Source: Raillietiella orientalis (Eukaryota). From it: 64,000 nt of DNA. The notes under the pieces were generated by a model. That model did no database searches. It worked only from the letters and a program-made list of their open reading frames with translations, and was not told the DNA's origin. Location: the NCBI GenBank assembly GCA_036172245.1, contig JAYWIR010000001.1, positions 6,076,001 through 6,140,000 on the forward strand, read 5' to 3'. The first letter of the stretch is position 1. The number at the start of each line of letters is the position of its first letter. Positions 1 through 43,122 of this stretch are shown piece after piece. Both the position numbers and the translations under genes were made by a program.

Positions 1-435
1 ATGAAATACATCGCCGATCCCTCAATGCATTCCATGCCAGCTGTCACATTATCCCCGAACCAAAAATGGCTAGCCTGCCAAAGCATGGACAACAAAGTGG
101 TCATCTTTTCGGCCATAAACAGATTCAAATTAAACCGGAAAAAGGTTTTCAAAGGTCATATGGTTGCTGGTTATGCATGTTCTGTGGATTTTTCTCCTGA
201 CATGAGGTAAAAAAAAAATAACGAAAATCTCAAAATGTGCTCTTTCTGGTGAACCAGTTATCTTGCATCTGGAGATGCAGATGGGAATGTGTATGCTTGG
301 GATTGGAAATCTACAAACGTGGTTAGTACCTGGAAAGCTCACGAAGGAGTTTGTATTGGAGTACTGTGGCACCCTCATGAAACATCGAAAATGGCCACCG
401 CAGGATGGGACGGGCTGATTAAATATTGGGATTAA
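1..435 (+). CDS. CDC40: Pre-mRNA processing factor 17 (WD40 second-step splicing factor), last two exons; 5' part lies outside the window
   Basis: Exon 1-206 ([30 protein letters not shown]...[19 protein letters not shown]), GT-AG intron 207-257, exon 258-435 ([18 protein letters not shown]...[22 protein letters not shown]). This matches the conserved CDC40/Prp17 C-terminus. Confidence 0.97.
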
Positions 436-706
436 GAAGTTTTCTGCACGAGGAAGACGTACATTCTCATTATATCCATTGCAGACGATCTGTCATATCT
501 TGCAGTAAAACTTTCATATTAAACTGTATTCGCAAACGAATGTGGTATTTTATTGGCACCCAAGAACTGATTGCTCTCGGTGGAATGAAGCATTTGAATC
601 ATCTGAACAGTTACCATGGTTATGATGGCACGTGAGGCATGAAGTCATGCCGAGCTGCTTGCCCCACGAGTTTGTCAGGTTAAACCTATTTATCTGGGTT
701 GTTTCA

Positions 707-741
707 ATCGACCCTCTCGGCTTTTTGGCTAAGATCAAAGT
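707..741 (+). pseudogene. U2 snRNA 5' fragment (truncated or variant)
   Basis: TCTCGGCTTTTTGGCTAAGATCAA (715-738) matches metazoan U2 TCTCGGCCTTTTGGCTAAGATCAA at 23/24 positions and is preceded by ATCG. Similarity stops before the GTAGTA branch-recognition motif; stems II-IV are not visible. Confidence 0.65.
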
Positions 742-1033
742 ATTTGCATGTTAGGGATGTATTTTGTGGATGTTAGGATCGAAGATGCATGAGGTTAAGA
801 GGTTTGAGGATTCGTTGCTTTGTTATTTACTCCCATGACAGTTCTTCCCGTTGAGGTGATGAAAGAGTACAGTTAAAAAAGGCAGGTTTTGCTCCTTGCC
901 TTATTCCCTTCGCGGTTGTTTTAATCAGCATTTTTCCCCCCCCCCCTCCTCTTCAAAGGGAGGAATGTATTTTGCTTAATTGAAAGGGAATGCGCTCGTG
1001 TTGTTACGTCGGGATGCAGTGAAAGGGGGGTAA

Positions 1034-1440
1034 GAGCTCATCTTTCGCGACCCCCGTTATTCTCTGCTTCCTGAGGATTGCGTGAAGTGCCGTGCCGAGC
1101 TCCGTTCAACGTGAATGGCCCCACCACAAACGAGCATTTGCAACCACGGAAAAATCTGTGCTCCCTTCGCCGGTATGGGTCGCCGTGACCCTGCGACCGC
1201 CGGTTGTTTCTGTGGAACAGCAAGGTGCAAAATTTCACGCGCTCGGAACACGGAGATCCGTCAACGTCCGCCGTGGACCGTCTTTACTCGCAGCCGAATG
1301 GAAAGGCGAAAAGTTTCCGAGGAGTAATCCCTGGTCGAATAGCTCGTGTGTGTCCCAAGACTTCCGCAAGGAGGGTCTCTCTTTCCCATGAGAAGCACCG
1401 GCACTATCGGTTCGCTGCCCCACCGCTGTCCAGAAAGGAT
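1034..1440 (+). ncRNA. Candidate large structured RNA, family unknown
   Basis: GC-richer island with seven or more nested helices containing G-U pairs on the + strand and two GNRA-capped hairpins (see findings). Boundaries approximate. Confidence 0.4.
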
Positions 1441-1774
1441 AATCTTTGAGATCTTTTGAGATCATTGTTTTGAAGGATGAAGCAGGAATGCAAGGAACTT
1501 CAGGGAAACGGGAACGTTAAAAAAAACGTAAAGCAGAAAAACTTAGCAAACGTTTCACAGGAATCGCATGCAATTTTTAATCAGCTTGCTTGCGGTCGTT
1601 CACGGTATGATTTTGAAAGTTTGCAACGGCACAGTTTAGCAAGATGTAAATATTTTCTGATCTACCAAATGGCACTAAATGGTACGTCTAAATTATCAGC
1701 TACCAAGTAATCCCAAGTACCAAGTAATGGATAATTTTGGGATTTTCTCCGTCCGATAAGACGAAAATGGATTT

Positions 1775-2300
1775 TTATTCCTGTTCCAATAAAAAAGCGA
1801 ATGTGTGCTCAGTAGTTTTCAGTTTTCCCTTATTACCTACATCCAAAATAATTCCTTCTAATCGAAGCATGGGAGAAAGATAGGATTCGACTATTTCTCC
1901 AGTTTTTTCTCCAGACTTCAAAACGTTTTCCGATAAGACCGCTGAGTTTGGATACAAAGCGAACCAACACTTCTGTTTCCCTTTAAGAACTCTGCCTCTA
2001 GCAGTTGCTCTTCCGAACTCGGAATAACCCTCTCAGTGTTTGGTGCAAGGATGTTTGGTACTATCGAAGAATCTTGAAAATCCAACCTTCAGGATTGTGC
2101 TGAGCTTCCTCTTTCTAGAACATCGTGAGTTTACATCGGGAATGCAATTTTGTTGCTTCACACAACAGTTTTCCGAAGCTCTTTCCAGGTCTTCATTTCA
2201 GCTTCAGCATTTTCCAAGTAACCGTCTGCCTTCTTCAGTTGCAGAAATTCCTTTTCTTCCGATAGTATGCATGCTTTTCGTTTTTCCTCTGGCAACTGGA
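1775..2300 (-). CDS. Possible small multi-exon gene of unknown product
   Basis: Charged, coiled-coil-like ORF segments (EEKRKACILSEEKEFLQLKKADGYLENAEAEMKTWKELRK) bounded by plausible acceptor and donor sites. No recognisable domain. Confidence 0.25.
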
Positions 2301-3265
2301 ACGGGACACACGGGTCAAACATACCGAAAAAGGAAAAAAAGAATTGCAATATGAAATCAGTATTCACACGTAACACTTAGTCACCTTGAAAAAAGTTCTT
2401 TACGTTATTATTCCTTCTCACGTGTTTTATGTTAGTGAATATATGAGGACAGACATGATCACTGCTGAACTACAGTTGAAATTACTAATTGTTTTGAGCC
2501 TAATCAAACCTGTAACCGAAGCATAAAACAGTTTGATTGAGATATTTAATCACCATTAAGTCATTGAGAGAACTTTTTTCTGTGGTGGCTTACTAAATCT
2601 TCGAAATTCTCCCTACTTTTCCAGGAAACAAAATGAAAACCGTTCCCTCTCTTCGGATTAAATCCTTTACTTATTTCATCATGAAACACACAGCTTGAGA
2701 GTGTCCGAGCTGATGCATGAAAAGATATCGTTTCGTTTTCCGTTCTGTGCTCGTGGTCAGTCGGAAGGAGAATGCTGGAGTAAAGGTTCCACACAATCCT
2801 CAGCAAGTGAGATTGCGTGATGATTCATCTCCGGAAAAATTCACAAGTTTGCGTTCCTGTCTTGTTACTTGCTCTGGCGAGGGTACAATGGAACACGTTG
2901 GCGTCTTCGCCGTGTTGGCACTCTTTGCCGGGGCAGTTTTCTGGAAATCGACTAACGCGGAGAAGCAAAATGGCAATGCAAAATAATGCAAGCTGTTTTT
3001 ATCCTGTTCTGCAAGTGCAAAACGTGATGAGAACGCAAGAAAAATGATCCACCTCCCCATCCCCACCCCTTCATCCCCGAGATGCTTTCATTTTTACAAA
3101 ATTTGAGGTGCGTCTTTCATCAAAACACGTGCTTTTGGAAACCACGATTCATCTTTAAACTGTTTGTCGTTTTGTCAGTCGTCACGGTATTTTCTTTTCC
3201 ATTTTGCTACAAAACGGCCTCCATGGCTGCACTACCTTAGCAGTGGACATGTGGCATAGACACAC

Positions 3266-3372
3266 GTACACGCTTCGGCTGTACATATACTCAAACTGGA
3301 ACCATACGGAGAAGATTAGGGTGGCCCTTGCGCAAGGATGACACGCAAAATCGTGAAGCGTTGCACATTTTT
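3266..3372 (+). ncRNA. U6: U6 snRNA, full length (107 nt), divergent variant or pseudogene
   Basis: Colinear with U6 without indels: 5' hairpin GTACA-C-GC-TTCG-GC-TGTAC, ...GAGAAGATTAG..., TGGCCCTTGCGCAAGGATGACACGCAAA, TCGTGAAGCGTT and a T5 terminator. The ACAGAGA box reads ACGGAGA and the AGC triad reads AGG. Confidence 0.9.
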
Positions 3373-3528
3373 CGATGGTGACATTCAAAAGGACACCATG
3401 CGTGGAAAAATAGAATGCAGAGATGAAATGTGACTGAAAGAGTGCTACTGGTGAGATTGATGTAATTGTATCTTTGTTGTTAAACAAATTCGCCCCTCCG
3501 CTGGTCAGAGCGGGGACGATGTTGCATA

Positions 3529-3713
3529 GACACATATTCAGAATATCATAGAGGTGAATCTGATTTTGTAGATTGGTTGCCTGTTTGGGACCCTGCAGAT
3601 CAGACCACCTCTGTAGTGCACTTTGCCACAGACAGTTTGGCATGACATGTGCCTGCTCGTCGTCAAGTACATGCACTGCAGTTGTCTCGTGAAATCCTGA
3701 TGGTGTGTTTTTT
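3529..3713 (+). ncRNA. Candidate Pol III-type structured RNA downstream of U6
   Basis: Shares the U6 upstream flank (15/16 nt), folds into a long hairpin plus a branched domain, and ends in T6 (3708-3713). Confidence 0.5.
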
Positions 3714-6700
3714 AAAGCCGCATTTCCTCATGATTCATTGATTGGAAATTGAACGTTATGTTGTCGTGTATTCATCGTAGTTGTTTCGAGGTTCCTTTCG
3801 ACGAAGGTCTTTTAGGAATCTCGCACGTAACAGGAAATTTCAAAAATGGCACGTATGAATTCGGAATAAAAAGGAAAACCAATTAGGTTATCCTGGAGAT
3901 TGTGAGCGTGAATTCTATTGAAACTGGAACAAAATTGCAACTGCTTATTGAATTCTTCTCATTGAATAAGGCCATTTTGACCGGCTTCCGTGACCGGTTT
4001 TGATTCGAACCGCATGACTAACGTGATGTCAACTATGCGCCTACTATAAAAATGAAATGCCCAAGAATACAGACATATTCGTATTAGGAAATCCCAAGGA
4101 AAACATGCCGAAGGTAATTATAACGGAAGGGCGCTTTTCACCATCGGATCACACACAGCGAGGCGCCTACGTGGGGTTGCCCGGGAAGCTGGATGCCTTC
4201 CCTTTGGGGCTCCGCGCACATTTGAGAGCAGGATTATCACATTCCGGGATCAGAAATCACGAATCCCACCGCCGAGTAAAAAAGAGGACTGTTTCCGGTT
4301 TGGCAAAAAAGTGGATGGATCAACCACCTTTTCTATGCTTGTGCAGGATGCACTTGTTTGAGATGCAGTCTACGTTTAGAGAAAAGTGAATTGGGAGCAT
4401 TCATTGAAGTAATGAGAAAATCTTAAACCAGCGAGAGTGGATCAAGTGCAAATCGTATGTAATTCAATTCTTTTTAACAGGAGAGTTACGGATAGAGTTC
4501 AGCGGTAAATCATCTGGAAGACGAACTATTATCGATTTGTCGTCTTTGAGGGTATGCAGCTGAGGGTTTTTCTTGTGGTGAGACCGAAAAAGTAAGTTTC
4601 TTAGTATTACACTGTTGAACCGTTTTCTGAACACGTCCGATAAAGACATCAGTGTCTATGGCTAAAACGTGTCAAAAACATCAAATGGTAATCACGTTCA
4701 ATTTCCTAGAACGGGGGTTTAAGCAATCTCACACGTGAATTTAATGATCAGTGATTGTTTACAGTCAGTATTTTATTTTAAAAAATGCACTCCTCATCAG
4801 GTAAACATGTAAATATCTTCAAATGAAACCTTCTAAAGTGTCCCTGTTTGAAAACATGCTTTCGAATTTCATTTCTTCTCTCTCTTGTTCTTGTGATCTA
4901 AAACAATAAAATTGAATGGTTGAATGCAAACTGGACAGTCGGAACGTTTACTGAGGATAAACAAAACCATCAAAAATTTCAAAATATATATTCTAAAGAA
5001 AGTGCACGTAAGTGTATTGTGTAGAACATAAATTCAAAAAAGTGTCCTCAGATTGCACTGGGAGTGCTGCTGCCGTGTCGAAACTACGTAGGTCGCGTTC
5101 CTAAATCTCATACTGAGTGAAGCCTAATGTTTAATGATTATCTCGTTCGTCTGACGTAAGTCATTTGTCAGTACTATAATAATTTCACCGAAAGTAAGTG
5201 AGACTTGCCTTCTCAGTAGATTGAAAAACTCAAAATGCTAACTGCTGATTTGGTTGGTACTTTTAAAAAGTACTGCGCTTTTAAAAAACCTCTCAGAGAA
5301 TTCTTGCTCCATCTTGTTCCTGTTCTTCCTTTTCACTGCCCATTGATTCACACGTGCATAACATACGCTTTTCTGAGATCACTGATCGACGATTTAGATG
5401 ATACCTAAGAGTTTCTCTAATTTTTGAAATTCAAAGCCATTTTTGCAAGGGTGATAATTCCATTTCTCTCTCTCTCTCTCTTTCTTTGCCCAATCTTGTC
5501 ATAATTTTGAGATTTTTTTCTGTGCCCTTTCGTATTGATCGAAAAAATGAAAATCTTGAATTTTCAGTCCTTTTTGTAATTTTTTGCAAAGAATAGCATG
5601 GGTTCAACTTGAGATGGAAACATTTTGGACTGCAAGTAGTATGCAGACTGTTAACGTCATGTGTTAACCACAGCAAGTAGGGATGTGATTCCATAGTCTG
5701 AATTTTAGATAAATGTGCAGCGGTCATGTTCTTGCGCTTCTCGTCACGCCACAGTATGATCGCGTATGAGGGACGCCGCAAGAGGTTAACCTAGTGGTCA
5801 AGTCTTGTAGATCAAGACTCGATCAGAGAACTCGAGAATTTCAGGTAGGGAATAAGTAATCAGTCGTGTGCCATTTTAGGTTAAAAAAAAAAATCGTCCT
5901 AGATTCAATTAATTTTTTCTAATCAAAGAGTTTTAATTTTAATTGAGTTTCATGTGGAAGCAGAAGTTAGAGAACTAATCAAGCGCAGACAATTCAGAGA
6001 AACAAATTGGGTACACATTCCTAGTCTTTCACCGTACATTAGTTACAAAGATGTATTTTGAGTCGAACAACAAGAAAGCAAATGAGGTTAATTGCAAAGA
6101 ATGAATGCTAATGGGTTTTCACAAGGATACAGGAGAATTTGCCTTGAAGACCACTGAAGAAAACTGAAGGATTTCCGGGTTACACGTTCCGTGCATTAAA
6201 TTGGTTAGTTTCCATCCACTTTCCCCTAAAGGTGCAGTGAATTGCTATTGAAGATTGAGAAATAGATTCACATCATAAAGAAATCGCTTCAAAAGATTTA
6301 CCCCACGTGAGTGCAAATATGATAGAAGCAATTTGCAATTGTCATGTTCATTCATATCTTCATTTAGTAAATCAGTTAAAATGTGCTTTGTGTTAGCTCT
6401 TCTGCTGATAGGTATGATGTAATTCATCAGGATCGACTAATACGAAAAGTTCGACTCATATAATGTAGTGTCCAGATGAGTGTGACGAACCTGATAATTT
6501 TACTTTAATGATACCCTAAAAGCTTGAATCATAATTAAAATTATCCCATTGAACAGGGAAGAGTAAAAATTCATTTTTGAGAGTTCATTAAAGGGAAACA
6601 AAATAGCGAGTTTAAGTGCAACTTCATGATGTTCCATTTCTTAAATAATTACATACTGTATTTGTTGAAGCACTGAAAAGATAGGAACAAAAGGCAAGAA

Positions 6701-9700
6701 GCCCTCGCCGAATATTTAGTGCTGAAAGTAAAGGATCAAACTATTTAGACAATGGAAAATACGATCCTTTAATCGAAAACAAACAAACAAACAAACATAT
6801 CCTGATATGTTTTTTTTTTTTTTTCGATTAAAAAAAACGAAATTTCAAAACACGGACAAGCTGAATGTGCTCACGAAATAGAAGACGAGCGTCAGTTTGG
6901 AATAAGCAGTATGCCCAAATTCAAAATCTTTTGTTTCAATAACAAAATGCTACTCTGATTGAATATCGAAAAGAAAGCTCAAAGTGACGATTAACTTGAC
7001 TTTGGGTTTATCATTGATGGAATAATCGATGATGATGAGCCCGAGTAAGCAACAAATACGTATCCCGAGAGGAAGAAATTGATGTTCACAAATTTAAATA
7101 GTACGGAGTTTTTTTTTCGATTTTAGCAAATTTTAGGACTCTTGTATTTAAAATGTCCATAAGTAACACAGGTTCGGAGAAATAAGTTTCTTTTCAGAAA
7201 AAAAAAAATGGAAGAGGAAGAAAGCAACAAAAAAAGTTAGACAAGATTCACTGAGAGTGCAACTTTGAATTAGGTTCATTAAATAAGAGTTTTGTGGTTT
7301 TGGGAGAATCTGCGACCACGGAAAACGCTTTGGAATAAAAAGAATTGTTTCGATTCTAAGGCTGCTAGCAGATGCATTTAAAGCAATAGTTCAACTTCAT
7401 GAGAAGAAGAATACTCTGAACAGTGGAAGTATTCTTTTATGGTCGACAAGTAAGCTATTTCCGTTTCATTGCATATGGTTTCTGATGGGAAGACAGGTAG
7501 ACTTTTACTACTAAAAGTGACCGTATACTTTTTGATAGAATACGGAATCGAAGTGATTTTCTTTTTTTGTCTGGAAGCCTCTATTTCAGTCTAGCTTACC
7601 GATCTTACTGATTACTGATGTGCATCATCAGCTTCGGAAACCATTATTCGTTTGTACGTGAGCGACCGCGAGCTTCAGGAAGTAGCAATCCTGGTGCAAT
7701 GGGTTCACATCAGAAATTCACAACTTTACGTCTGTTGGTTGTTCCGATTTTATGAATGCGACTTACGAAACGATAACTATTTGTATGAGAATCGAAGTGT
7801 CTTCGAAGTCCAAAGCAAAGACGGCTCAACTCTCAAGACTTCCATAGTATATTGCAAAATAATTTGAGTTTTCCTTCGTTTCATGCTCTAAAAACTGTCT
7901 CGAAATCCCCATGTAGATTCTCATTCATTATTCCATTCTGGATGAAAACACGAAAACTCTCTGACTGTGTCTTCGTCTCACAAAACGTTGAACCAATGCT
8001 GTCTTGAAACTACCCAGTTTGGTCCACAACTAGGGTAGGAACTGCAACAGCAAATTCCATTTCAGATTTGTCAAAAAGCCAGATGTGAGCAGAGCGCACC
8101 TCGAGTGTTTGTTTTGTTTTTTTTCAAGTAGAAATACGAACGTTTCGTCTTTTACTAATATTGCTTATATTGTAAATACCTTCGGAGAATTATGACTAGT
8201 AAGAAAGAAAATTAATGACACCTTTTGCAAGTGTCACTGTCAGAACATTAGTTTATCTTTAGTATGTCTCCACATAATCAACGAAAATTAGCCCATAACA
8301 TCACCCATCACTAATGACGAAATGAAAGTGTTCCTGAATAACTTCAGCTAAGCAGAGTGGATGTTTAGAGATTTTCTCAAATCAAGTTTTCTTGAATTTA
8401 TTTAAGTTTCCTGCTATTTGTAATTACGTGAACGAGTAACAGTCTGTGAATGATGCACGTATTCTGAATTCATTTATCACAAAGTCTATGGATCACTGTG
8501 GACTTCTTTCTCCTTCAGATTCTGTATTTGCAGAAGCTCATAAGAGGCCTTCAAAGCAAATCGCTGATATCGAGGAAGGATCGTTACAAATTAACTTGGA
8601 ATTATTCCTTTTTTCAAGTACCCATATGAGGATGAACTGAGAGCATAAAAAAAATCACAGGGAAACATCGGAAAGCAAGCAAAATAACCTCTCCTATTTT
8701 GGCAATTTTATTTCTGGATTTGTGTTATAGGCCGTTAAAGTTCGTAGGTGATCGATTTCTCGTTTGCATATCTGCGGAATAGGTAACTCCCACATATAAC
8801 TCATTATACACATGTATAGTATATTTATTATACAATTATGCTAGTTGAAAATCATTTAGATAATAAAGCTGGTACTGCAGATAAAATTCTCTGAAACAGT
8901 GCAGCATTTTTTCGCCCAATATGTCATTGAAGAAAAAATCAGATATTCATTTGGAAGTTTTTCTCAAATTTCCCTTCTAACTGAGATTTCTTTGGACACA
9001 TAATTATGGGATTAATAATTATCTATTTCTTACAAAACGTATTACTTGTCTTATCCAAGACGCATATCATATATAAATTATTCGATTAATTATTACATAT
9101 ATAATACAGTTCATTTCACTGAAATCATTTTTCAAATGTGCTTTATAGAAGTGCGCTTCAGTAATTCTTTAATCTAATGAAACCATTTTAATCTGCATAA
9201 AGGCAGTTTAGTCGCTGCTCCAGTGTAGCCAAAGTTCCAAAACTTGAAAGATGCCACAAACTGTGTCAAGAGCATATGCAGGAATGTCTCGCAAAATAAG
9301 GACAATTGTCCTCGATGACACCCAAGGTTGACGAACAGGAAAAATTCCATAATCTACACGCACTGACTGAATTTTCACATCAGAGCAGGGAGTTTGAGTT
9401 TCTTGAACAAAGGACAGTCTTTTTAGCAAATCATCCCAACGACGAATGCAGGAAATAATGTGAAGGATTCAAACCTTTCATATGAATGACGTTTATGCAA
9501 TTACCAGCTGTGCAAGTAGTCAGGAATTCTTAACCAGAGAACACGCTTTGGCATTCAGTATGACTTTTTCAACTTCCACGGAAATTTTTCGACAGCGAGC
9601 CTTGGTAAATTCGAATGCTTTACATTGGTATGGTCAAGCAAGCTTGGAAAAACGGTACCTGCCAAATCTAATGAAGCGTACCTGGCCTTGGTTTCTTCCA

Positions 9701-12756: not shown

Positions 12757-14128
12757 TCAGCTTCTTACCTCTACATGCTCATTCCTGGAAAATTCTTCCC
12801 TACGTTTGTATGGAAATCCAGAATCACAAGAATAACTTGAACTGCCAAATTCTGGATGTGGAAATAAGAAATTTTCTGCAGTGAGAAAGTAAGGATCAAG
12901 ATATGGTGAATTTGTCAAATATACGAGGGCCCAGTCATCCATTCCATAGCGTCTGGGATGCGTTAGTAAAGTGGAACGTCGAATACATTCAGTTTCGAAA
13001 CAGTCGTGGAATTCCCGTTCCAATTGGAACTCTTCAGAGGTATCACTCACACTATTAGTTGATGACCATTGACTCATTTGAAATTCCGAGTTTTTCGTTG
13101 AACTGAGTAGCTGTAGGTTGACGTTGCCACCATTTGCTTTTCCCTTGATGGATTCGAATACATTTTCCAATGATTCCTGCGTACAGACAGCGTTTGCGGT
13201 TCCTTTGTAAGGAATCAAGGAATTCGGATCTTTGGTATCCTCAGACAAAGGTGTGCCACAGCATACAGGCGAATGCCCACTCGAGAGAGAGCCGGACTTC
13301 TTCGCTTGCTTTTCTAAATAAACGTGCAGTCTCGACTGTGAAGTTGCAATGTCTTTGGATAAGGATACAGGGGCGCTTTTCAGAATCACTATATCTTGAA
13401 TCGGTTGGGATCGTTTGAACACTATTTTTTCTAGGCTCATAAAATCCATGCAGGTTTTGGGAAAATTCTTTCTCTCTCTTTTTTCCACAACACTCTTGCA
13501 TTTTTTAGATCCCCCTTTACTACCATTTTCCGCAACGAGGTTCTTGGGATTGATTTTGTTGGGAGTATTCACAGTGTCCCTGCTTAGCAAAAAAAGGTTG
13601 CAATTTTCTTTTTCTTTTCTCTCCCTGCTTAACGTGGATCGGTAATGTTTTTTTTTAATCTCATTTTTACCACGAACCAAATCATCCCAAACGGTTTTAC
13701 CCTCTAGCATGTGATAATTTGCAGGGGTCAAATGCTTTCTGAACTGATTTATAGGACTCTTTTTCGGACCAGAAGTTTCCTGTATACTCTCATCCATTCC
13801 TCTGCCAACATCCTTAATTTGCATTTTTAATGTTTTGTTTGTTGTATTTTCAGATATGGACTTAGCACGAACCTTTCTGTTTTCGAATTCTGCTAGATAA
13901 TTTTCTTCAATTGGGATCATAGTCAAATGGTGCACACCCTTTGGTGGATTTTTTGATGTTTTTTCCTCACCAAGATGCTGATTTCTCTCATGGCTCGTGC
14001 CTTCGTTTGAAATTAATGAACGGAGTCCACCATTCCTCACATCAGTTTCATTGAGGCTCGAGCGAGCAGTGGGAAACTTCTTGATGCTGATGTCTAATTT
14101 CCCTAATCTTCTTTTTTGGTTCGTATTT
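12757..14128 (-). CDS. Large terminal exon of an unknown Lys/Ser-rich protein (>427 aa)
   Basis: About 1.37 kb stop-free frame in AT-rich DNA, where that length is unlikely by chance; candidate acceptor (TTTTAAAG) at ~14129. No recognised domain; upstream exons not resolved. Confidence 0.6.
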
Positions 14129-17100
14129 CTTTAAAACAAAATAGCATTTATGATTGACGATGAATCACTTTTGCTTGCAACCGTTAGAACAAAAACAATT
14201 CAAAAGAAATTCCAAGGTAAGAAGCATTAGAACAGCTTTTGACCGGGGTGATGCACGCAAGCGTATCTGAGAGAGTACTTTGCTTTTGTTTTTTTCTACT
14301 TCTTGCTCGCGTGACGAGAGAGTTACAACCTATGTCGGCGTGCGGAACAGATGCTGCATTAAATCTTAATCGAAATGCAGGCACTGAGAAATTAAAAAAA
14401 AAAATCATGAATAAAAGGTTTAATGCAATCGGTTTCAGTGAATAAAGAATAAAACTATGCATTTGGGGTCTTCTCAAGAAGGAAAGACGTAAACTGAAAT
14501 ATGAAAAATTATTCATACATCGAGAAAATGACAGGATCTCAGAAAAATTCACGCATAGACAAAACGCAAAATAAGTAAGGGGCAATCCTTCAGCTAATAT
14601 TTAGTATTAGAAACAATTTAACAAGGGTTTAACCTTGTTAAATACCTGGTTATTGTATAACGAAAGGGCAAAAAAGCATTCAAAACATTCTAGAAGAATT
14701 GCTGTCACACAGACCCCCTTTATAAATAGGATTTGCCGATCATGGCTTGAAAGGAGTTTTAAGAGACTTTGAAAACACAGAAACTGGAATCACAAAAGCA
14801 TTTTATGAACATGAACAGGCAGACGTGACTGAAGAGAAGCTGTAGCTGAAGATCAACAGAACTGCAGATCAACCGAGCAACAGGTGGGGATTCGATGGAT
14901 CAAACCAATTCCTCTACCTATTAGCAGATATTTTCTTTAGCGAATAGTTTCTTATCAGGTGTAGCTTAGGATATTCCTAAAGTTAACAGACTGAAATCTA
15001 ACAGTATCCAATTTATCACTTCTTGTTTGATTTTTGCTTGAATAATACGTGGCCTGCGATTTATATTTCCAAATTTCGTTCAACTAAAATGCGATGTAGA
15101 GGAATTCACTGACAGTTAGTCACTCGACATTTCACGAGTTCTACTTTTTATCGCAAAATCAGACAACAAGTAGGCCGCAGACGTCTCCCGACTTTTCTAA
15201 AAGTGCGAAGAGTAGACTCTGTCATGATAGGAGGGAAAAAGAAAATGATTTACAATTTCTGGCTTCCACCAGTTGGGATCCAAAGACATATTTAGGAAAG
15301 GAACCGCCTTCGTTTTCTCATTTCACCCCTGTAAGCGAAAACACGAGCGGAGACTCAGTCTACAGCGAGCCTTTAAAGAGTGGCTCTCTCGATTGCCATA
15401 AAGTGGTGCACCTCCGACGCAAGGACGAAACCGAATCACCAGAAACACTATGCACAGTAACACCGAAGGTACATTGCAACACAGGCAAAATTACTCAACT
15501 CTGACAGCCGAGGTGTGGAAGGTGTCGTGCAGAACCGAAAACATAAGAAAAACAAACAGATTCGTTCGATTAAAAAGTATAAGTACCAGCAATTTTCTGA
15601 GGAGTTTATTTTCCAGAAATCTGTTACTAAATGGGAGTTGTAATAGTACCCCTTCACATGTGCATGCATGTGTTTGTGTTCGATGAACGACAGCGGATTT
15701 GATGTTAGCGTTAATTTAATTGTGTGGTGCTTATAAGAGGGGATATTCAGATGCGAATAACGAATATACGGACTGAAGTCATCCATTCAAATATGTGCTA
15801 TAAAACAGAAAAGGCACTCTTGAAAAGAAAATGATTTATATTAAATGACCGATTAATTATTCATCAGATAAGGGAACGATTCGGCAGATTTCTTTTAATG
15901 ATTTTAGTTATAGAATATTTTTTTCAAATTGTTCTTCAGATTTGGAAAAAAAACGCTCAAATATTTTGCAATTCATGCTTTTTTCTTTTGAAATGCGTGC
16001 TAATAAGAGTTGCGGAAAGAAAAAAAACTATTGAACAGGCAAATTGGTTAATGGTAAGATCAAAATTAATGAAGGAACGGAGAAATGGATAGCATGGAAT
16101 AAAAAATTTACATGTTTATAAGTTCAGTAATAGAAAATTTGCTTACTTCCTTTTATTTCGAGCACTTTTATGCGATGCAACTTTCCCAGATCCATTGATT
16201 TTGAGGTTTTCATTTTCCAATAAATTTGAAACGGCCTTCTTATAACCTCGAATGCATTTCGTGGATAACTTGTAAGAACAAAGATGTAAAATCTGATGTA
16301 AATACCTAGAGTAAATAATGTACTCTTATTATAAAAAAAATAGAATTTGGAAACTGAGATCGCGAAAATGGAGTAAAGCACCTTAGAGTAGAGAATAATG
16401 AAATGAAAATGAAATAATGAAATTTTCACAATCATCTTTAGTTATGCTTGCTTACGAATTCACAGCTTCGAAACGAGTTCACGATGTCATTAAGAAAGGA
16501 AACGGAATCAGTGTCTAGGGTTCAGTAGCATCTCTTGAGGAATGATCACTGCACTCGGTTACGGTGTAGCAAGATGACCAACAGTAAGCAAACTGCACTA
16601 GAAATGACAGCAGCAGCCTATTAGAAATTCGACCTTTGTGCTGAGTTGTTTGTTTTCATTTTATTGCCTCATTCAGACTTCAGATCATTCGATCCCTGCA
16701 TTTTGAAAATATTTTTGTCTCAGAGCAATGAATTTTGACTTTTTGTTGTTACGTGGCTGATTATCTTCAACGTGTGGTGAGCTTCTGCTACGATGCAGCC
16801 ATGGAAACTTATCCAGATACTATCTTTTAAACCTGTGTGGTGGTGGTGGTGGTGGTGGTAGTAGTAGTAGTAATCCTCATTCCAGAATTAAGCCGTCCCC
16901 TCAGACATTCATTTGAGTTTTAATATCGTAGAAATATTTTAGAAAAAACAAAGACACATTGTTCAGAGTGCAGGAAGCAAACATAGAAGCAATTCGATGG
17001 TCCGAATATTGCAACTAAATCACCGGGTGACGACTAATGCAGCAATACTGTACGCGGAAGATGCTTTCATTAAGAATAACAAGAGTGTACTTGTTTTCAG

Positions 17101-22196: not shown

Positions 22197-23890
22197 CTGA
22201 ACGATCAAAATCACAGATTTTACAACAAAACACGTTAACTTATTGAATATATTAATATATATTTTTATATATAGATTAGTGTATATTATAAAGAATACAA
22301 AAAAGAAATATAATGCTTTTTATGTATATTAGGATATATAAGGATATATATATATATATTTACATATAGATTATTTTACAAATTATTCTATCATGCATAT
22401 GTATTAATATTCTTGATACGCATTCTAATAACAGTAACATTATTTTTAACACACATACATATTATTAGCATTTTTTAACATACAGATTACTGATATAATT
22501 AAGAATGTGTTTATAATATATATTGATATATAGTAATTATTCATAGATAAATATACATTGCAAAAATGGTACAAAATAAATACATTTATACATTAACATG
22601 TTTACTGATATATAAATTAACATGTAGGTTAATCTATAGACTAGCATACAGATTCATTTGAGCACACATATTCACTGACATAATTAATAATATGTATTGA
22701 TATGTATATGATTAACATATATAGTGAAGCTTATAAAAAATAAACATTTATGTTTATTATATGTATTAATACATGTTTATATGTGTGAATATCGAATTAT
22801 ACAAAAATGAAAAGCAACTGTAGCAATTGAAAATAGTGGGAAGAAAATGGAAAAGCAAACAAATTTAAGAAAAGTAAAAAGAAATTTGGTATTTCATTTT
22901 CCTGTCATTCCCAATACTCAACAAACGGAACCTTCTCAGGAAATGGCGAATTCTATTTTCGAGATTTTGATCGTTCAGTCAATATGTACATATATATTTA
23001 TAATGTGAGATTTGTATATTTACTTCACGTATATTTATTATATGCACAAATATATGTTAATATGCATAATAAACATGTGTGTTATTTTTTGCAACCTTTA
23101 ATGTATATTAATAATGTATATTGATACTTCTTAATTACATCCATAAATATGCAAATTAAAATAAATTTGTACATTAATCCATATATAAATATATATACCA
23201 ATATACATAAAAGACATATATACTTATTTTTTGATCTTTAGAATACAGATCTTTAGAATGATTAGTCTACATATTCATCTATATGTTTATAATATATATG
23301 AATGTAAATATTAATATATATAATAAACATAGGTATTAATTTTTCATGTTCTTTATAATATATATTCATTCAAATATTAATCCATATATGAATATTTATA
23401 ATAAACACATTATTATATGATCTTGATATCTATGATAAATATATTTGTGATTAATAAATATATATGTATGATTCTCTTAATACTATATATTAATGCATAT
23501 ATTAAATCATTCATATCAATATATATAATTAAAATGTGTATTTACTCTTTATAATCCTTATCATATGTATTATTCTATATGGAAATATATATACGCTAAT
23601 ATGTGATAAAGGCATAAATTATTCTAATAATATGCATGTTATTTTAACATACATATTAACATTTATTAATATCCATGTTAATAAATATTAATAAATGTGT
23701 ATATTAAATAAATTTGTATATTAATCCATATGTAAATATGGATATATTAATATACAGAATGGGCATGCATATTTTTTACAATCTTTATAATATATATTAG
23801 CCAATGCATTAATCTATATACAAATTTATATATTACATGTGTAATGAACATGCGTATTTGTTTTTGCAATTTTTCGTGATTTGGATCGGC
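22197..23890. mobile_element. Extremely AT-rich block with inverted termini (foldback/MITE-like)
   Basis: CTGAACGATCAAAATC (22197-22212) has a perfect reverse complement at 22963-22978 and a 12/13 one at 23876-23888. Degenerate AT-rich modules run in opposite orientations in the two halves. Confidence 0.45.
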
Positions 23891-24799
23891 ACCGTCGCTG
23901 AACAGAAGCGAAGTGAAGTCCAGAAGCACGTGCTGGGTCGTCTGCTGACCTCTTGCTGTGGGTGCCGCCGGGGTTTGCTTGCAGCACAGCTGTCGATTGT
24001 CCACAGTGAATCCTCAGCTGGCGGAGAGCGGCGATGGCAGTCGAAGAAATGCCCACGGGGAAAGCGGCGGAGAAACCCTTCGCGACCTCGTTCGAAACGC
24101 CGCCGGAGATGGTCGCACCTTCAGAGGAAAGCATGGACGCCTGAGGGAGCCTCCCAACCTCCCCTATCGCCCCCTTTTAGGCGGAGGTCGCGGCGGCGAC
24201 ACCAAACGGAAACCCAAGTTCCCTCCCCCCCCGCCAGGTGCGGGTGGCATCTCATGGCAACGACGGGAACGTCCTCCACTCGAGGCCGCAAAGCACGTGG
24301 ACGAAGTCGGCAGGCGTCGCGGACGCGGAAGGACCCTCGCGTGACGGAGGCAGCGCGTCCCCATGCCGAAATCCCCGGCCGCAGCACAAAGAATGGCAGG
24401 TTGGAGACCGCTGTCGCTAGGCGTCTGGCGTCCACCCGCAAAGGGCCCAGGGTTTGGTTGGAAACCGAAACGCTTGAGGGCGGGCGATCGACAGCCGTGC
24501 CGCCTGCCCACGGGGACAGGGCTTGTGCTCTCCCTGGAGCGGAACTCCGCCCTGCGACCCAGACTCGTCGAGGACCGCAGCAAAGGGTCAGCGAACGACC
24601 CGGCATGGACTCAGCAAACTGTCATGGGCACCCCACCGCACGAATGGACGCGCGAAACCGTGCAGAAAAGCTCAGCAGAAGGCTTCCCAGGCGGAACGGC
24701 GCAGGACCAGGCGCTTACAAATTCCCGCACGAGGAATCCCGAGGGACGCGCAGACTTCTAGATGAGCGGAACGTGCGTTCCTCAGCCTCCTGCTCTTCA

Positions 24800-25880
24800 T
24801 CTCGGCAACTCAGCGCGCGATGCGCAAGATGAGTCCTCCGAAGGCACCGGATGCTGACAATGCTGGCTGGCAGTACTGAAAGGGGGGAGGGGCTAGAGGG
24901 ACGCTTCCCATCGCTCCGCCTGGGAATTCCCCGAGAGCTGCAGCATTTCCTGGCTTCCCATGGGGAAAGACGCACGGCGCGAGCGGGGCGCCTGCTGCAG
25001 GAGATCGCGTGCTCCACCCGCGCGAGATGCCGTGGGCTCCGTTCGCCCCCCTCTCCCCACTGCTGTCCTCCCTAAGGGAAGCGAGGGACAGCTACCTTTC
25101 CGGCAAGGTGGGAAAGTGACATGCCACATCAAAGGCAGGAAGAAACTTCTGAGCGCGTGGGGAACACGAGAGGGGACGCAGCGACCCCGAGTGTCCCGCT
25201 CAAAAGCTCTTGTACTCTGAGACCAGCTGCTCGCGACCCCTACAGAGGAGGGTGAGGTGGTCCCTCAGCCTGCTGGAACAGTGATGCCCTCCCCCTCGAG
25301 TGGCGGGAGTTGGCGGTGCATGGGAGAATCCCGTGCAAGACGACGCCTTCACTACTGGACACGGGGGAAGGTCGGCGCGGGAAGTAGACTTAAGTTCTCC
25401 CACACCTGCTGTTGGACTGTGCTATCTTCCGGCTCCTTTGGGATCTTCTCGAGGCAACCCCAGGATCCCCGGTGGGCGGCCCCAGGGACATTTTCAGACG
25501 CCCCTTCGTGCCTGGTGCCTCACTGCTGCCACCAGCCGCGTCCCTCCTGCAGTCCTCTGCTGCCTTCGCGGGGATCGTGGTGGCCTGGAACTCCAGTAAA
25601 AGAGGCCGAAACGGCAGGACGCCATTCTCTAGGCGCAAATCTTCCTGAAGACCGCCTCGAGATGGCCCCACCTGGGTGAACAAAGGACAGAACTTGTGAG
25701 CATCCTGGACGGGACGCCTGGCACTGAGCTGTGATCCCTTGCCCGGGCCCCCTCTCCCTTTCCGAGAAAACACCCACCCACTCCTTTCTTCTGCTTATTT
25801 CTTTTATATATATATATTTTTTGTGTATATATATATATATATTTCCAGTCTTCCCCTCCCCTTCGCTGCTGAGGGCCTGC
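24800..25880 (+). mobile_element. Degenerate L1/Tx1-like non-LTR retroelement 3' part, copy A
   Basis: Homologous to copies B-D: LHYWTRG / HLLLDC-type segment, shared stop context CTGTGATCCCTT (TGA 25732-25734), then a T-rich tract. 5' boundary approximate. Confidence 0.6.
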
Positions 25881-28049
25881 TGCATATTCACACGGAAAGA
25901 CGTAGTAGGAGTCTGTACCTTGTACATGGCTCCGTATCGAGTCCGTACACGCGTACGCCTGCGTGCGAGCGTGTGCAATTCCGCGCGGGAGCGGATTTTT
26001 CACAACCCTTCAAGGCACGGTACGGTCTGTACACAAATACCGGTGCAGTGAGATCGTGAGGGGAGTTCGTGCGGGCAGCATCAGGGGGACGGCGGAGCGG
26101 GGAACCCTCCTGGCCCCTTCTCCGCACGCGAGCCGTGCTGGGGAGCAGCGTCGGCCCTGGCTGGGGAGAGCGCATGCCCGCGCGCGAGGGCTAGACCGGC
26201 CCGAGCGTCGGGCGTGGCAGGCGGGACCCGACGAGGGAGTGCAGCCGCCCAGTGGCGAGGTCAGGGTGTTCCTCCCTTCGCGAGGGGGGATAGCAGCTGC
26301 GCCTGGGACCGCGAATCGGACGGAGGACGCCGCTCCGCCTCCTCTTGGTCGGCAAGGAGGCACGCACGTCCTCTTCCGGAGGTGCTGCCTCCTGGGACCG
26401 TGCTTCTCGGGCCGGCCGCAGCAGCCAAGGAGGGTCGAGCTGCCCTTCTCTTGGCCCCGGTTTTGGCCGCAGCGCGCGGAGGTCTGCAGGGCTGCCAAAG
26501 CACCCGCCGGTCCGGATGGGTGGGGAGGGCACGCGACTGCGTGCGGCGCTCAGGTCGTCGGCTTCGCGCGGGGCCAGCCCGGCCCCTCAGTTCTCCCGTC
26601 ATCACCGCTTTCCTTCCACCACCACCATCCTTTTTTTCTCTCTTATTTTTTGGTCCTCGGGAAGCTCCGGAGGGCCGCTCGCCCCCTCAGAGAGGGCATC
26701 GGAGAAGCTCGACGATGCCTCCACCTGGGGGGCTTGCAAAGCTCTCGGATCAATGCCACCTGAGGGCGCGAACCCGTAGGGACCACCCCAACTAATCCGG
26801 AAAGGCTCCGAAGGAAGGATCCCGTCTCCCTCTTCCTCCTTTTGGTCGGGAGTAACCCCATAGGGAACCCTCTCCCTGGTTGTCTCCCTGGCGTTCGCCT
26901 CGGTCTTCTACGCTTTCGCCTGGCGCGCTCGAGGCGCTCGCTCTCCGTGGGCAGGAGTCCCAAACACCCTTCCCACGGAAAAGATCCCTCTGATGTATCC
27001 GGATGGTTGTGACAGTCGCCCCGTGGCAGCAGCACTTGCGCTTCAAGCTCTCCCGCGAGACCTCTCCGCTCTCTCGCGGGTGGCAACTGAGGGACAAGGC
27101 CAAGGAACCGCCTCGGAGCCTCTTGGATCGCAACGGTCCTTCCGCCTGCTGCTTGCAGGGCCGGAGTGAACCGTGGGGAGGCTGGTTCAGGACGGCTACG
27201 TCCCCGACGGAGCGGCGCTAAGGCGGGCAGGGGGACTCTCGCGGCTCCGTGGACTCTTCCGTGCTCCTGGAGGCGTCTGCTGAGAAGGGCCGACACGCAG
27301 CTCAGAAGGAGCGGTGAGAATGGCAGGTGGTCCACCATCATCGTCATCATTTTTTTCTTATCCATTGCCTCTTTCCTGCACCGTTGCGGCCGACTGCCGA
27401 TTCCCCCTCCCCCCTTCTCCTCTCTTTCCCTCTAGAGCTCCGTCTCCTCCCACGTGGGGGCGAAACCCCAACTTTGTCCGTTTAATTTCGGATGGGGGGA
27501 GGGGGCCCAGAGCACGCACTGGCGGGAGTGCATAGCCTTCAACCCACTGGCAAACAGACTTTTCCCTCGGTCACGTGAAGCGGTGCTGCCACCTGTCAGA
27601 GGCAAGCCGCAAGCATTGTAGCCTGCGATGGAGGCTATGCGGAGAGGAGGGGGGGAGGGGAGGCTCGAGCGAGATCTGGCGATTGCGAGTAGGGTTTCCC
27701 TGAAAGAGACCCATCACTACCGCTGGTGCCGAAAGGTGATGGTTGGGGTCGACTCCTTTCCCACCTGACCCTTACGTCCCCCTCTTACCCGCGATACGTC
27801 AGCCCGAGATCCTGTCCTGCCTCCTTGATGGCCGTTGCCGCTCGACTCTTCTGCTTGCTCGTCCTTGGCGCCGCGGCCGTGGACGGAGAGCTTGGAGGCG
27901 GAGAGGCGCGCTCACCCCTTCCCGGTCACCCCCGCACTTGTAGCTCCCCAGGACTTTCCTGGTCGCTCGCGACGGGGTTTACACCGGCGCTCCTCTCGAA
28001 GGTTCGCCAAGGGTCCTCCCCCGATTCTCGGGGGGCCTTCACTCGTTTC

Positions 28050-29800
28050 TCACCCGGGTGCGTCGGGGCGTTTATTCTCCCGAATAAAACATTTTACAGA
28101 ATCTGTGGCTGGACCACTGGGCCAGTCACATGCTAGATGATCAAAGTCTGCCGGGTCACTGGTGCGCAGACCGGTGCGGTCCGCCTCGGCAGCAGAGGGG
28201 AGGGGGCATACACAAAAAGAAAAACGAAAATGAAAAATAAATCAAAAAAACTGGGGAGGGCATGGGAAGGGATCACAGTCTGCTGGGAGGAGATCCGTCA
28301 CATCCTCTGCAGGATGCCGGCAAGCTCTTCCTGAATATTGGATTCCAGGTGGGACCAGCGCGTTGCCATCCTCAGGAAGCGGACGGCGTATTCGCTGGCA
28401 TCCCCATCGCTGGGTCCTCCCGTCGCCTTGCTCCATGCAATCCCGCGTAGGCAGCACAAGGCTGCTAGCGAGGTCGCTGGTGGGAGAGCGTCTCGAACGA
28501 GGAGGAGTCTTGTTGCGTCTCTGGGGTTGCCACAGGGGATACCTTCGGTCGCAGCAAAGCGTTCCCATAGGGATCGGAGGGCAACATAATCCACTAACAG
28601 GTGGGGGAGGGATTCCCGCTCCCCACACCTAACGCAATTGGGATCGATACCCTCCCGAGTCCAGTGGTGGCGTTGCACGGGAGACCCCAGTGCAGCAGCA
28701 GCAACGCCGACTGCTGCCACTTCAAGGGGAGGGTGACGGTGTTCATGAGCACTGGGTGCCACTTCAGATGCTCCAGCGGAACATCCAGCAGCTCGCCCCA
28801 GCGCGAGAGTCCATGAGGGGTTGTACTCGGGGTCGCAGCGTCGGCCAGTTGGCCCGTCTTCCTTTACACCCGGATATGCCGGGCCATTTATTTTACAATA
28901 AAAATACAGGAATTTTCTTGTGGCGAGCCCATTGGCTCACCACACCAAGACAGCTTGCTTCTTGCCGGTGCGGAACCGGCGAGGTCCATCCGACGCACTG
29001 GGGTTGAGAACAAGAAAACAAAAGAAACAAAAAGTTCAAAAGTAGGGAGGGAACCACTGTTCTGGCCCGTCTTCCATTCCCCTATTCTCTTCTCCCTTCC
29101 AAAGATTTTTGCTCTCACCTCCCATGCCGCTGCAACGCTGCTGCCCAGATGTTTCCTGGGGGTGAGCAGTGCCGCAGCTAGGGAGGTTCTTCCTGCCCAC
29201 GCGCTTTTTCCGGGATCCTTCTGGATCTCTCGGAGCGTGCAGCTGTTGTTGCGCGCGTACGCAAAGCGTCACTCTTGTTCCACGCGTTGGTCGTGGCTCC
29301 TCGCCCACGTGCGAACAGTTTCCTGCAGCCAGGCACTTCCGTTCGCGGGACGACAGGAGATCTATCCCGAGTTCTTCCACGTCACGTTGGCCACCCTCTG
29401 AAGCTGCAATCCGCAGTGAACGATGTGGCGGCGATGGAGCGCAAAGAAGGACGCAAGTCGTGCGTTGCCGGTGGCTTTCTTGACGAGAAGACGTGCAGGG
29501 TGGCACCAGGTGGTGCTCCACAGCTTCGCCACAAGGGCGGTCATCCAGAACTGGAGCTGAAGCTCCAGCCGCTCTAGCGTCAGAAGGCCAAGGCCGCCGT
29601 CCCGACGCGGAACGCACAAGTCCTTCAACACAACTTGGGGCCTCCACTCGGACGGCATCTGCCTGGTGCCTCCCTCCCTCCTCCCCCTCCTCAGTCTTCT
29701 GGGCTCCTCCCCTCGCTTCCTCGGGAGCCTTCCTCCAGCTTCCTCTCCTGCCTCTACCGTTGCTCTGCACTCTCGGGAGGTGGCCAACCACGAAGGGCCA
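28050..29800 (-). mobile_element. Degenerate L1/Tx1-like non-LTR retroelement 3' part, copy B
   Basis: RPQVVLKDLCVPRRDGGLGL (the post-RT L-C-x-P-xxx-GGLG motif of L1/Tx1 ORF2) and DPNCVRCGERESLPHLLVD (zf-RVT-like CCHC finger); frameshifted; conserved 3' tail. Confidence 0.75.
28863..29062 (-). mobile_element. 200-bp 3'-tail-only retrocopy nested inside copy B
   Basis: Flanked by a perfect 13-bp direct repeat TGGCCCGTCTTCC (28850-28862 and 29063-29075). Homologous to the 3' tails of copies B, C and D. Confidence 0.8.
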
Positions 29801-31863
29801 CTGCGAGGTTGCAGAGTTTCTTTCCCTTCCCCTGCTAGGAAGCCTCGGTGACTCTCCCAGACCGGAGCTACCCTCCCGGCCAGCTAAGGTCTGCCCAACA
29901 CTCCGCACGCGCAACTGTGGTGTTTCGGGATCACCGGGAGCCTCACCACGACCCCCAATGGTGCGCACATCCACGCCCCGGGCCCGTTGCCGCATAGGTA
30001 GGTAGGAACTGTGGGGGTCCTGCGAGATCTAGGAGTCCACGGGCGGCTGCCGCTGACCGCCACAGAGGCGAAGGAAGGGGACAACACGGGAGCAGGTTAG
30101 CGTCGCGCGATGGGATGGAGGGCGATGGGATGCCGGCAGCTGCTGTCCCTCCGCGGCCTCTTCCGCAGCGCGCGCGGGATGCAGGCAACCCTCCAGCCGC
30201 TGCCCTCCGTGAGCGCTTCCCGCCGCCTCCGGGAATCAACGGAAATCGCGGGCGGTCCGCTCAGGTCGCTCGTCCCCCACCGATCCGGGGATGGCAGGTT
30301 GCCGATTCCCATTCCCGTCCCAAGGGAAAACCAGGAAAAGCAGGCACAGGAAAGCCTTCGTCAGGATGCGCTTCCGGTCAGTCGCGATTGCGGGAAAAGT
30401 GGATGGAAAGCTGCTGCTTCCTGCCGTTTCTTTCGGTGCCTTCGTTTTCGCGTGCGCCGCGGAGAGCGCGGCCGACGCCATCGCGCGGCGAATCGTCCGA
30501 CGAGTGTCGCCATCGCGCTGAGCCCCGTCGGAAAAAATTTCTACGAATTTAGGTAAACGTGGAATGAACTTTCCACCCCAAGATGCAAATCGAGGATAAT
30601 GTAGAGAGCACACTCATCCTTCTTGGGGAAAGCAAACTGCGAGCAGCGAAGTTTCAAAAGTTCCGAAATGTCGATCCAGTATCGGGGGGAAGCGGAGGCC
30701 CTGCTGCCAACAACCGGTTGCCAAGGTTTCAGGACCGGGCGGGAACGGCGCTGCCCCCCCATGGTTGCTGCGCGTTTCTTGCTGCGGAGCCGCCGCCGTC
30801 GCTTAGGAAGCAGCGAAACTTTTCTTCATCTCTCTCTCTTGTTCGTTCGTTTCGCACGGAAGCCGTCCCCGAGGCTGACCGCTGGAGAGAGGGAGGAGGG
30901 GGTGGGGGTGGACGCGCGCCCAGCAGCCGACGCCCAAGCAAAGTCCGAGGTCTCGGCCATACGCCTCGAGGGAGGAGGGAAGAAACGTGCTGAACATGGA
31001 GAAGAGGGCCATTCTGAATCTGAATTTAGGAAGGCGGGCATTCGCCGTACGTGGAGTGGTGGCTGACAGCTCGCTCCTTTGACGGGGGAGCACCCGTCGA
31101 GGCAAAGGGAAACGCCCTCCACCGCCACGCGCCTAAAGCTGCGAACTGCCGCCGAGCGGCACCGTCGAAACGCATCCCGTAAATGGCAAGCCGCGTTTCG
31201 GTCCAAAACCGCTTGTTGTTTATGGCGCTGTTACCGCCCCCATTCCGTCCCACCGGCCGTCGTCATCACCCCCCTCGCCCTGCTTTGAGGGATGCCCTAC
31301 GACGCCACGTTCGAAATCGAGGAACAGCATCGCTCGAGGAGCGGAGGCGGAGTCTGTCTGCCTGCCCTCATCCCTGCCAAAGACAGGCAGGCGAGCGGTC
31401 ACCCAGGAGTCGAAAGGCGTGCCCTCGGGATCAGCGGCCCTTCCGAAGCGAAAGGCTCGCGTGGCTTGCGGACCGCAGGGGTCACGGCACGCATGCGCTG
31501 CATCGCGAGTGCTCAACTCAAAGAACGAACCGCAGACAAACGAGCCACCAGGCATTCCTTCTCCCACGCTCAGCCTACCAACAAATGTGCTACGAACACT
31601 GCTGTAAACAACCTTACGTACAGGACCTCCCACTCGTACGTGGAAAGTACTACGTGACTATACATTGTATGCACATGAATGAGTACAAACGCAATGGTAC
31701 ATGGTACTACGAAGAAATGGCTCTTTTCGCCAGCCACATCAGCCGCCTTACCATTCCAAATACCATACTATTATTAATAAGTGCCACGTACACAAGTTGT
31801 GCGTGAGTTGTACTGACAGTCCCCTTCCGGGAATGCTCAGCAGCACACAAACAGTCTGGATTA

Positions 31864-33120
31864 TCACCCGAGTGCGCCGGGGCGTTTACTTCATAACCAC
31901 GAGCATTCATAATGTGTGTGGCGAAACCGGTGGTCCAACCACGTCCATCTCCAAAGGAACCTGCCGAGTTGCCGGTACGCGCACCCGCAAGGCCCACCAA
32001 GGCAGCAGAACGGAGGAGGGCAAACAAAATGATGAAAGAAGAAGCAAAAGTGAAAATAAATAAATAAGTAAATAAAATTGGGGGTGAGGTGGGGTGCGGG
32101 AAGGGATCACGCCCTGCTGGGGGCGGTCCTCCGCATCCTTTCGAGGATGCCCGCAAGCTTTTTCTGGATGCTGCTCTCGAGGTGGGGCCATCTGTTGCCA
32201 CCCTCGTGAATCGGACGGCGAAGTGGATGTGGCACCCCTGTCGCTGTGGCACCCTCCTCTTGCGTGACTCCAGGCAGCTGCAATCCCGTGAAGGCAGACG
32301 GGAGCTTCCAGAGAGGCTGCTGCTGGCCGAAGGGCGTCACGTAGGAGGAGGGGTCTTGATGAGTCCCTGGGGTCGCCTCCGGGGGCTTCCTAGGGTCGCG
32401 GCAAAGCCGCAGGGCGACAGCACAATCCACAAGCAGGTGCGGGAGGGATTCGCGCTCCCCGCGTCGGCCGCAGTTCGGGTCCATCCTCCCCACCCTTCCA
32501 TGTCCAGTGATGCTGGCGGGCGTTGCACGAGAGACCCCAGCAGCAACGCCGACTCCTGCCACTTGGAGTAAGGGGTCCACGAGCACTGGGGGCCACCGCA
32601 GATCTTCCTCTGGAATATGCAGCAGCTCGCCCCAGGGCAAACGTTCTCGAGGTGGGGCAGTCGGGCTCAGTCAGTCACCCAGTCCTCTACTCCTACCGGA
32701 GATTTCGACGGTGACCTTTCATCTAGCAGGACGGCTGCTGCCCATGTGTCCTCTCAGGGAGGGCAGCGCAGCGGCAAGGGATGTTCTTCCCACCCATGCA
32801 CTTTTCCCGGGATCTTCCAGGATCTCTCCCGGCAGTTGCTGTAGGGCCCGTACAGGAAACGTTGTGCCTGTTCCGGGCATCGTTCCTGGTTCCTCGTCCA
32901 CGTGCGATCGGTTTCCTGCAACCAGGCACTACCGCTCGTGGGGCCATAGCCAGTCTGGATTTCCCCTTCCAACGGTTCCCTGCCCCACCGACCCTAGCGC
33001 CTGGCTGGATGAAACGGCTGGCACGTGGACGTGCGAAGCTGAAGACCTACTCAGAAGAGTGGAACTGCCTGCGTCTCGGCGGCCCCGCTCGCCTCTCGCT
33101 GCGGAAGATCGTGGGGAGTG
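31864..33120 (-). mobile_element. Degenerate L1/Tx1-like retroelement 3' part, copy C
   Basis: WGELLHIPEEDLRWPPVLVD and MDPNCGRRGERESLPHLLVDC; DNA at 32750-32950 aligns with 29150-29350; same stop context and tail as the other copies. Confidence 0.75.
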
Positions 33121-43100: not shown

Positions 43101-43122
43101 CCTGCATGAACATCCGACAAAT

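Follow-up and report, generated by a model that had tools for sequence, protein, structure and literature searches.

Chimeras in which a U6 copy is joined to a 5′-truncated LINE and flanked by a target-site duplication are a known layout, and U6 is found joined in this way to L1, L2 and RTE elements and to SINEs in placental mammals, platypus and lizard (PMC4476161; see also Buzdin 2002, as cited there, Group IV in Doucet et al. 2015, and Moldovan et al. 2019, PMC6789731). Internal initiation on U6 is described in PMC4476161 as never seen in U6/L1 chimeras. It has also been shown that U6 bearing a 2′,3′-cyclic phosphate can be ligated by RtcB to an RNA with a 5′-OH prior to retrotransposition; in the genomic chimeras described in the same source most U6 copies are full length up to the T tract, and snRNAs other than U6 are usually 3′-truncated (PMC6789731). 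Chimeras of this type have so far been described mainly in vertebrates. The locus analysed here lies in a 64-kb stretch of DNA (the window) and shares much of this arrangement, and we consider it probable that it is a retroposed (processed) chimeric U6 pseudogene.

The U6-derived sequence occupies positions 3266–3372 on the + strand and is full length, matching RF00026 over model positions 1–105 of 105 with 93.6 bits (gathering score 44, E = 7.9e-23), and U6 is the sole Rfam family to reach its gathering score within the window. The 5′ stem-loop and the T-run terminator expected of a functional U6 are both present, the hairpin at 3266–3284 forming a perfect 5-bp stem (GUACA/UGUAC) in the Rfam alignment as well as in the predicted fold, and the T5 run lying at 3368–3372. 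The ACAGAGA box of a functional animal U6 gene is altered, and so is its AGC triad. Relative to the Rfam consensus, an A>G change at 3308 turns the box at 3306–3312 into ACGGAGA instead of ACAGAGA, and changes of C>G at 3320 and A>G at 3321 produce AGGG for AGCA at 3318–3321, with the triad itself (3318–3320) reading AGG. Two further near-invariant (capital) consensus positions are changed (3296 U>C, 3328 C>U), which brings the hand count to 5 of 63 (7.9%), and four lower-case positions (3292, 3303, 3363 and 3366) also differ. An earlier note on this DNA, made from the sequence alone, had described the same changes at 3308 and 3320–3321, an intact 5′ hairpin and a T5 terminator, all of which agree with the alignment; its count of about six other substitutions corresponds to the two capital and four lower-case positions when the Rfam consensus, not the human sequence, is the reference. 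Its statement that indels are absent holds outside the hairpin loop, within which two insertions of one base each set the copy apart from the Rfam model.

Paired changes distinguish the 5′ stem from the Rfam consensus and leave its five base pairs intact. Judged from the sequence, this pattern would fit a functional lineage-specific U6 as well as it fits a copy of one, and it could simply reflect the parent U6 gene of the same species. The internal stem-loop is not recovered by a single-sequence fold of the U6 region (z-score 0.10), and the 3328 C>U change would, given the known pairing of that stem-loop, produce a G-U wobble and not a break. A 181-codon stop-free frame runs antisense over the U6 copy and the sequence behind it (3182–3727, − strand); its translation is random-looking and without a Pfam family, and the frame was dismissed as a chance occurrence.

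The U6 copy is flanked by the sole direct-repeat family that the repeat search found in 3000–3800. Its core copies, ATGTGGCATAGACACA at 3249–3264 and ATGTTGCATAGACACA at 3519–3534, are identical at 15 of 16 positions, and blastn extends the match to 3245–3264 versus 3514–3534 (90.5% over 21 columns, with a single mismatch and a single indel). The upstream copy stops at 3264, one base short of the U6 +1 position at 3266, and the downstream copy begins 141–146 nt past the U6 T run, so that the repeats bound a unit of about 250 nt (3265–3513/3518) that comprises U6 from the first base of the RNA and a non-U6 tail. A single C at 3265 separates the upstream repeat from U6 +1, with a T at 3535 in the corresponding place behind the downstream copy; the C may be one additional base at the junction or else the last base of the duplication, mismatched. 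From its placement in the sequence, the flanking repeat can be read as a target-site duplication, with putative 5′ and 3′ copies at 3245–3264 and 3514–3534, and a length of 16–21 nt would fall among those produced when non-LTR retrotransposons insert; the duplications left by DNA transposons and LTR elements are short and fixed in length.

Repeats of this quality are scarce enough for the position of this one to exceed chance. When pairs at least 15/16 identical with a spacing of 100–600 were counted over the whole 64 kb, 16 were found, 11 of them within 1–23800, and most of the 11 fall in an A+T-rich low-complexity stretch at 22.5–23.4 kb. Within ±3 nt of any one site, 0.0018–0.0032 comparable repeats would be expected, and no hits arose in 3001 trials in which the downstream flank was simulated with a first-order Markov model, both figures having been calculated post hoc, with the repeat already seen. 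The two repeat copies differ at between 1 of 16 and 2 of 21 positions and U6 at 5 of its 63 near-invariant positions; on these small numbers the divergences are of the same order, as expected with shared drift since one insertion. A tandem U6 array was considered and rejected, the sequence past the second repeat copy being unlike U6 (local score 14, shuffle mean 15.4).

Directly abutting the T5 run, and inside the repeat, is the non-U6 tail (3373–3513/3518, + strand), such that a U6 that is 3′-complete to its T tract is followed by a second sequence in the same orientation. The segment 3373–3513 has no Rfam match at E ≤ 10, no second copy within the 64-kb window by blastn and lacks poly(A). 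At its end, around 3496–3515, both the MFE and the centroid folds show a 7-bp hairpin; a 3′ stem-loop is expected at the end of those LINEs that are recognised through such a structure. We infer that the tail is the 3′ part of another RNA, whether a LINE, a SINE or some other transcript. Domain searches of 21 ORFs and of 150 ORFs from the A+T-rich blocks of the window gave no reverse transcriptase and no endonuclease.

The region upstream of U6 contains no TATA box at −35 to −20, where matches to TATAWAWR reach at most 5/8; positions −32 to −25, the place about 25–32 nt upstream of +1 where the box is looked for, read ACCTTAGC. The best match anywhere in −100 to −8 is 6/8 at −58, and A+T amounts to only 43% at −40 to −20. 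A TATA box is described as universal in metazoan U6 genes in PMC1761439, where mutation of the fly U6 TATA box is given a more than 30-fold loss of transcription and U6 homologues without a good TATA box are classed by the authors as pseudogenes. The same source describes differences among insect species in the PSEA, an upstream element at about 40–60 nt from +1. Given a human U6 variant with an internal promoter, the missing TATA box does not strictly prove that the copy would be silent.

Further upstream, the C-terminal exons of a PRP17/CDC40-like WD40 protein lie at 1–435, as indicated by a WD40 domain match. The first 69 residues, encoded by the exon at 1–207, are 84–93% identical to PRP17 proteins, and all named matches among the 120 matches listed are from arthropods (lice, thrips, spiders, crabs and others); the host is therefore an arthropod-type animal. 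Between this exon group and U6, open frames on the − strand at 1778–2032, 2161–2376, 2564–2824 and 2803–3087 are all without a Pfam family. They suggest a candidate gene at 1775–3087 (−) whose 5′ end would lie about 200–300 nt from the U6 insertion site.

Taken together, these observations are best accounted for by the chimeric retrocopy. In the proposed mechanism, a U6 RNA that was mature and complete to its terminal U tract would have been linked to the 3′ portion of a second RNA, either because the reverse transcriptase of a non-LTR retrotransposon switched templates or because the RNAs were ligated before being reverse transcribed. The joined copy of about 250 nt (3265–3513/3518) would then have been inserted by target-primed reverse transcription, with duplication of 16–21 nt of the target. 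Because one repeat copy ends at 3264 and the other lies past the tail, the unit starts at the 5′ end of the RNA and not at a promoter. Since animal U6 promoters are described as lying wholly upstream of the gene (PMC5855946), the inserted copy would have been promoterless on arrival and silent; it would never have been selected and would subsequently have accumulated point mutations. The earlier note had left open a pseudogene branch and leaned against this copy being the main U6, citing the lack of a clear TATA box and donor sites in the window that mostly have A/G at +4. The TATA observation agrees with the motif search, and the pseudogene branch is supported by the duplication-like repeats, by the missing TATA box and by the 5 of 63 near-invariant positions that are changed.

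A second snRNA-like sequence is located about 2.5 kb away. It is a U2 5′ fragment at 709–741 (20.9 bits, below the Rfam threshold) that is followed by unrelated sequence and carries an ordinary GCUAAGAUC at 728–736. Besides U6, this fragment is the only snRNA-like Rfam match in 1–8000 at E ≤ 10, and none was found in 8001–64000 at E ≤ 1. The fragment is likewise associated with a direct repeat, GGTTGTTTCAATC at 697–709 and GGTTGTTTTAATC at 914–926 (12/13 identical), of which the upstream copy lies directly against the U2 fragment on its 5′ side, with a chance expectation of 0.011–0.018 per site. A second short repeat of similar spacing (753–766 and 961–974) makes the structure ambiguous. To judge from the repeat and the truncated match, the interval 697–926 may be a second chimeric snRNA retrocopy, a weaker reading than that proposed for U6. 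The sequence behind the U2 fragment has no significant similarity to the U6 tail (local score 21, against a shuffle mean of 16.2 and a shuffle maximum of 25), so that a shared origin is not supported, and a search for tandem duplication around the fragment gave short matches only.

Among the alternatives, the one that survives best is that a true U6 gene was copied by DNA duplication in the course of snRNA birth-and-death turnover, lost its function and decayed, the direct repeat being coincidental. The full length of the copy, its intact terminator and the spread of point changes along it are what such a duplicate would show, and insect U6 homologues with several point mutations and weakened promoters are described in PMC1761439. 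However, a divergence of about 8% should leave an 8-bp TATA box largely recognisable, whereas the best match at −35 to −20 is 5/8. DNA duplication also gives no reason for the copy to begin at the first base of the RNA, and a 15/16 repeat that ends one base before +1 has a chance expectation of 0.002–0.003. We therefore regard this origin as unlikely.

Somewhat less likely again is that the unit belongs to a SINE-like family of many copies, its head derived from U6 and its tail matching a LINE, comparable to the crocodilian SINEU. The head-plus-tail layout, the 3′ terminal hairpin and the flanking duplication are all consistent with such an element, and SINEs with snRNA heads exist (PMC4494074). 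However, neither the head nor the tail has a second copy in the 64 kb, and the internal T5 run would stop Pol III within the element. Neither the 22-nt word of the 5′ hairpin nor a 19-nt word spanning both variant motifs was found as U6 in three collections (metagenome, genome and viral contigs), which hold little animal DNA, so that these searches reveal little about relatives. The hairpin word has no exact match in any of these animal-poor collections. The 19-nt word has two exact matches in the metagenome collection, two in Cryobacterium and none in the viral contigs; at E ≤ 1 none of the four is recognised by Rfam as U6, and both of the metagenome matches lie in unrelated sequence.

Returning to the chimeric retrocopy, the changes in the conserved motifs would be the outcome of neutral decay, even though they fall in positions called invariant. 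The earlier note had set against this a functional branch, in which the locus encodes an expressed variant U6 acting in a variant spliceosome, the G at the m6A position altering the preference at 5′ splice-site position +4. Its background on these motifs agrees with PMC5855946, where the METTL16 m6A site is A43, in the middle of the ACAGAGA box, this box is called “perfectly conserved and essential”, and pairing of the AGC triad takes place inside U6 as well as with U2 (helix I) and U4 (stem I). An AGG triad would need a matching U2 (CCU) and U4, the compensating forms being CCUAAGAUC in U2 and CCCUAAU in U4. In favour of function, the copy spans the whole of U6 and retains its terminator, its 5′ stem is kept perfect by paired changes and its internal stem-loop would, on the known pairing, have a wobble at 3328 and not a break. 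A human variant U6 with nine substitutions is also described as expressed from an internal promoter (PMC5855946). If the copy were indeed expressed, it would give an animal a second U6 that lacks the m6A-target adenosine in the ACAGAGA box and has a catalytic triad of AGG, in effect a natural experiment on the spliceosome's catalytic core.

The observations in the window do not support this branch. The TATA box is absent, the copy sits in an insertion-like unit, and near-invariant positions 3296 and 3328 are altered as well. The only U2-like fragment in the window has the ordinary GCU, with no compensating CCU, and the one intron read in the window, at about 207–263 in the PRP17 gene, is of the ordinary GT-AG kind and has A at +4. 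The AGC triad's C is in addition described as part of a base triple that includes the internal stem-loop's bulged U, besides its use in U2/U6 helix I and U4/U6 stem I (PMC5855946); with three interactions involved, its change to G therefore needs several simultaneous compensations. It is thus very improbable that a variant U6 of this kind is expressed, and equally improbable that the copy is transcribed from an internal or fortuitous promoter, enters spliceosomes together with an unseen U2 or U4 variant and serves a distinct class of introns.

The window as a whole is a sharp mosaic in base composition, with 33–43% G+C at 1–24 kb and 44–48 kb and 56–66% at 24–44 kb and 52–64 kb. The block boundaries lie near 23850, 43500–44000 and 51800, and CpG observed/expected is 0.74–1.08 throughout. 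An A+T-rich low-complexity stretch at 22500–23850, with many short direct repeats and tandem units of 17–22 nt, directly precedes the jump to 63% G+C at about 23850. Exons of an ABCD-type ABC transporter (− strand; ABC_tran at 43385–43942, ABC_membrane_2 at 45781–46074 and 48443–48727) are found on both sides of a G+C boundary, and the mosaic therefore looks real and not like an assembly chimera. The G+C-rich blocks (24000–44000 and 52000–64000) contain dozens of overlapping stop-free frames of 130–500 codons on both strands; 61 of the 64 that were scanned have no Pfam family, and most are probably by-products of base composition. Within the G+C-rich block that begins at 52 kb, a secretogranin V/7B2 exon (55948–56745, + strand, E = 1.1e-10) and a DAN/gremlin domain (58411–59082, − strand, E = 2.8e-29) lie about 2 kb apart. 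For the DAN piece the search gave one homologue only, a gremlin-1-like protein from a fish, with 50% identity across 48% of the query. The genes for secretogranin V/7B2 and gremlin are also adjacent in vertebrates. An A+T-rich block holds a 457-codon open frame (12757–14130, − strand) that is lysine/serine-rich and without a Pfam family.

Read as a chimeric retrocopy, the U6 locus is one more dead snRNA retrocopy and in itself matters little. It does provide a worked example of why a high Rfam score alone does not make a U6 gene, and of the need to check the flanks, the promoter and the presence of a target-site duplication. The occurrence of the U6 copy and the U2 fragment within 2.5 kb of each other hints that non-LTR retrotransposons of an arthropod-like host make snRNA chimeras too.

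Compared with known systems, the locus shares with canonical metazoan U6 genes the RNA family, the shape of the 5′ hairpin and the terminator, but those genes have a PSE or PSEA and a TATA box (PMC1761439; PMC5855946), the latter being missing here. The human variant U6 (Tichelaar 1994, 1998, cited in PMC5855946) is similar in carrying about nine substitutions and in having no standard upstream promoter; its expression was shown experimentally, whereas the present locus is known as a sequence, and the comparison does not extend to the catalytic motifs. No report related to ACGGAGA in U6 snRNA was retrieved by a literature search judged by title and abstract. SINEU of crocodilians (Kojima 2015, PMC4494074) resembles the locus in having an snRNA-derived 5′ head and an unrelated tail, and in its mobilisation by non-LTR retrotransposon machinery, which is what we propose here. 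The heads of SINEU derive from U1 or U2 and its families are multi-copy, whereas the head here is U6, followed by an internal Pol III terminator, and one copy was seen.

The closest comparison is with the U6/LINE chimeras. They differ in that their partner is a LINE or SINE, whereas the tail here has been matched to neither and has no poly(A), and in that the cases described in PMC4476161 and PMC6789731 are from vertebrates, while the host here is arthropod-like. No arthropod U6/LINE chimera appears among the literature matches listed, although one may still be in print. What the locus and these chimeras have in common is a U6 that runs from its first base to the T tract, a partner sequence in the same orientation, a target-site duplication of LINE-like length (here the putative one of 16–21 nt) and the lack of an upstream promoter, here judged from the missing TATA box.
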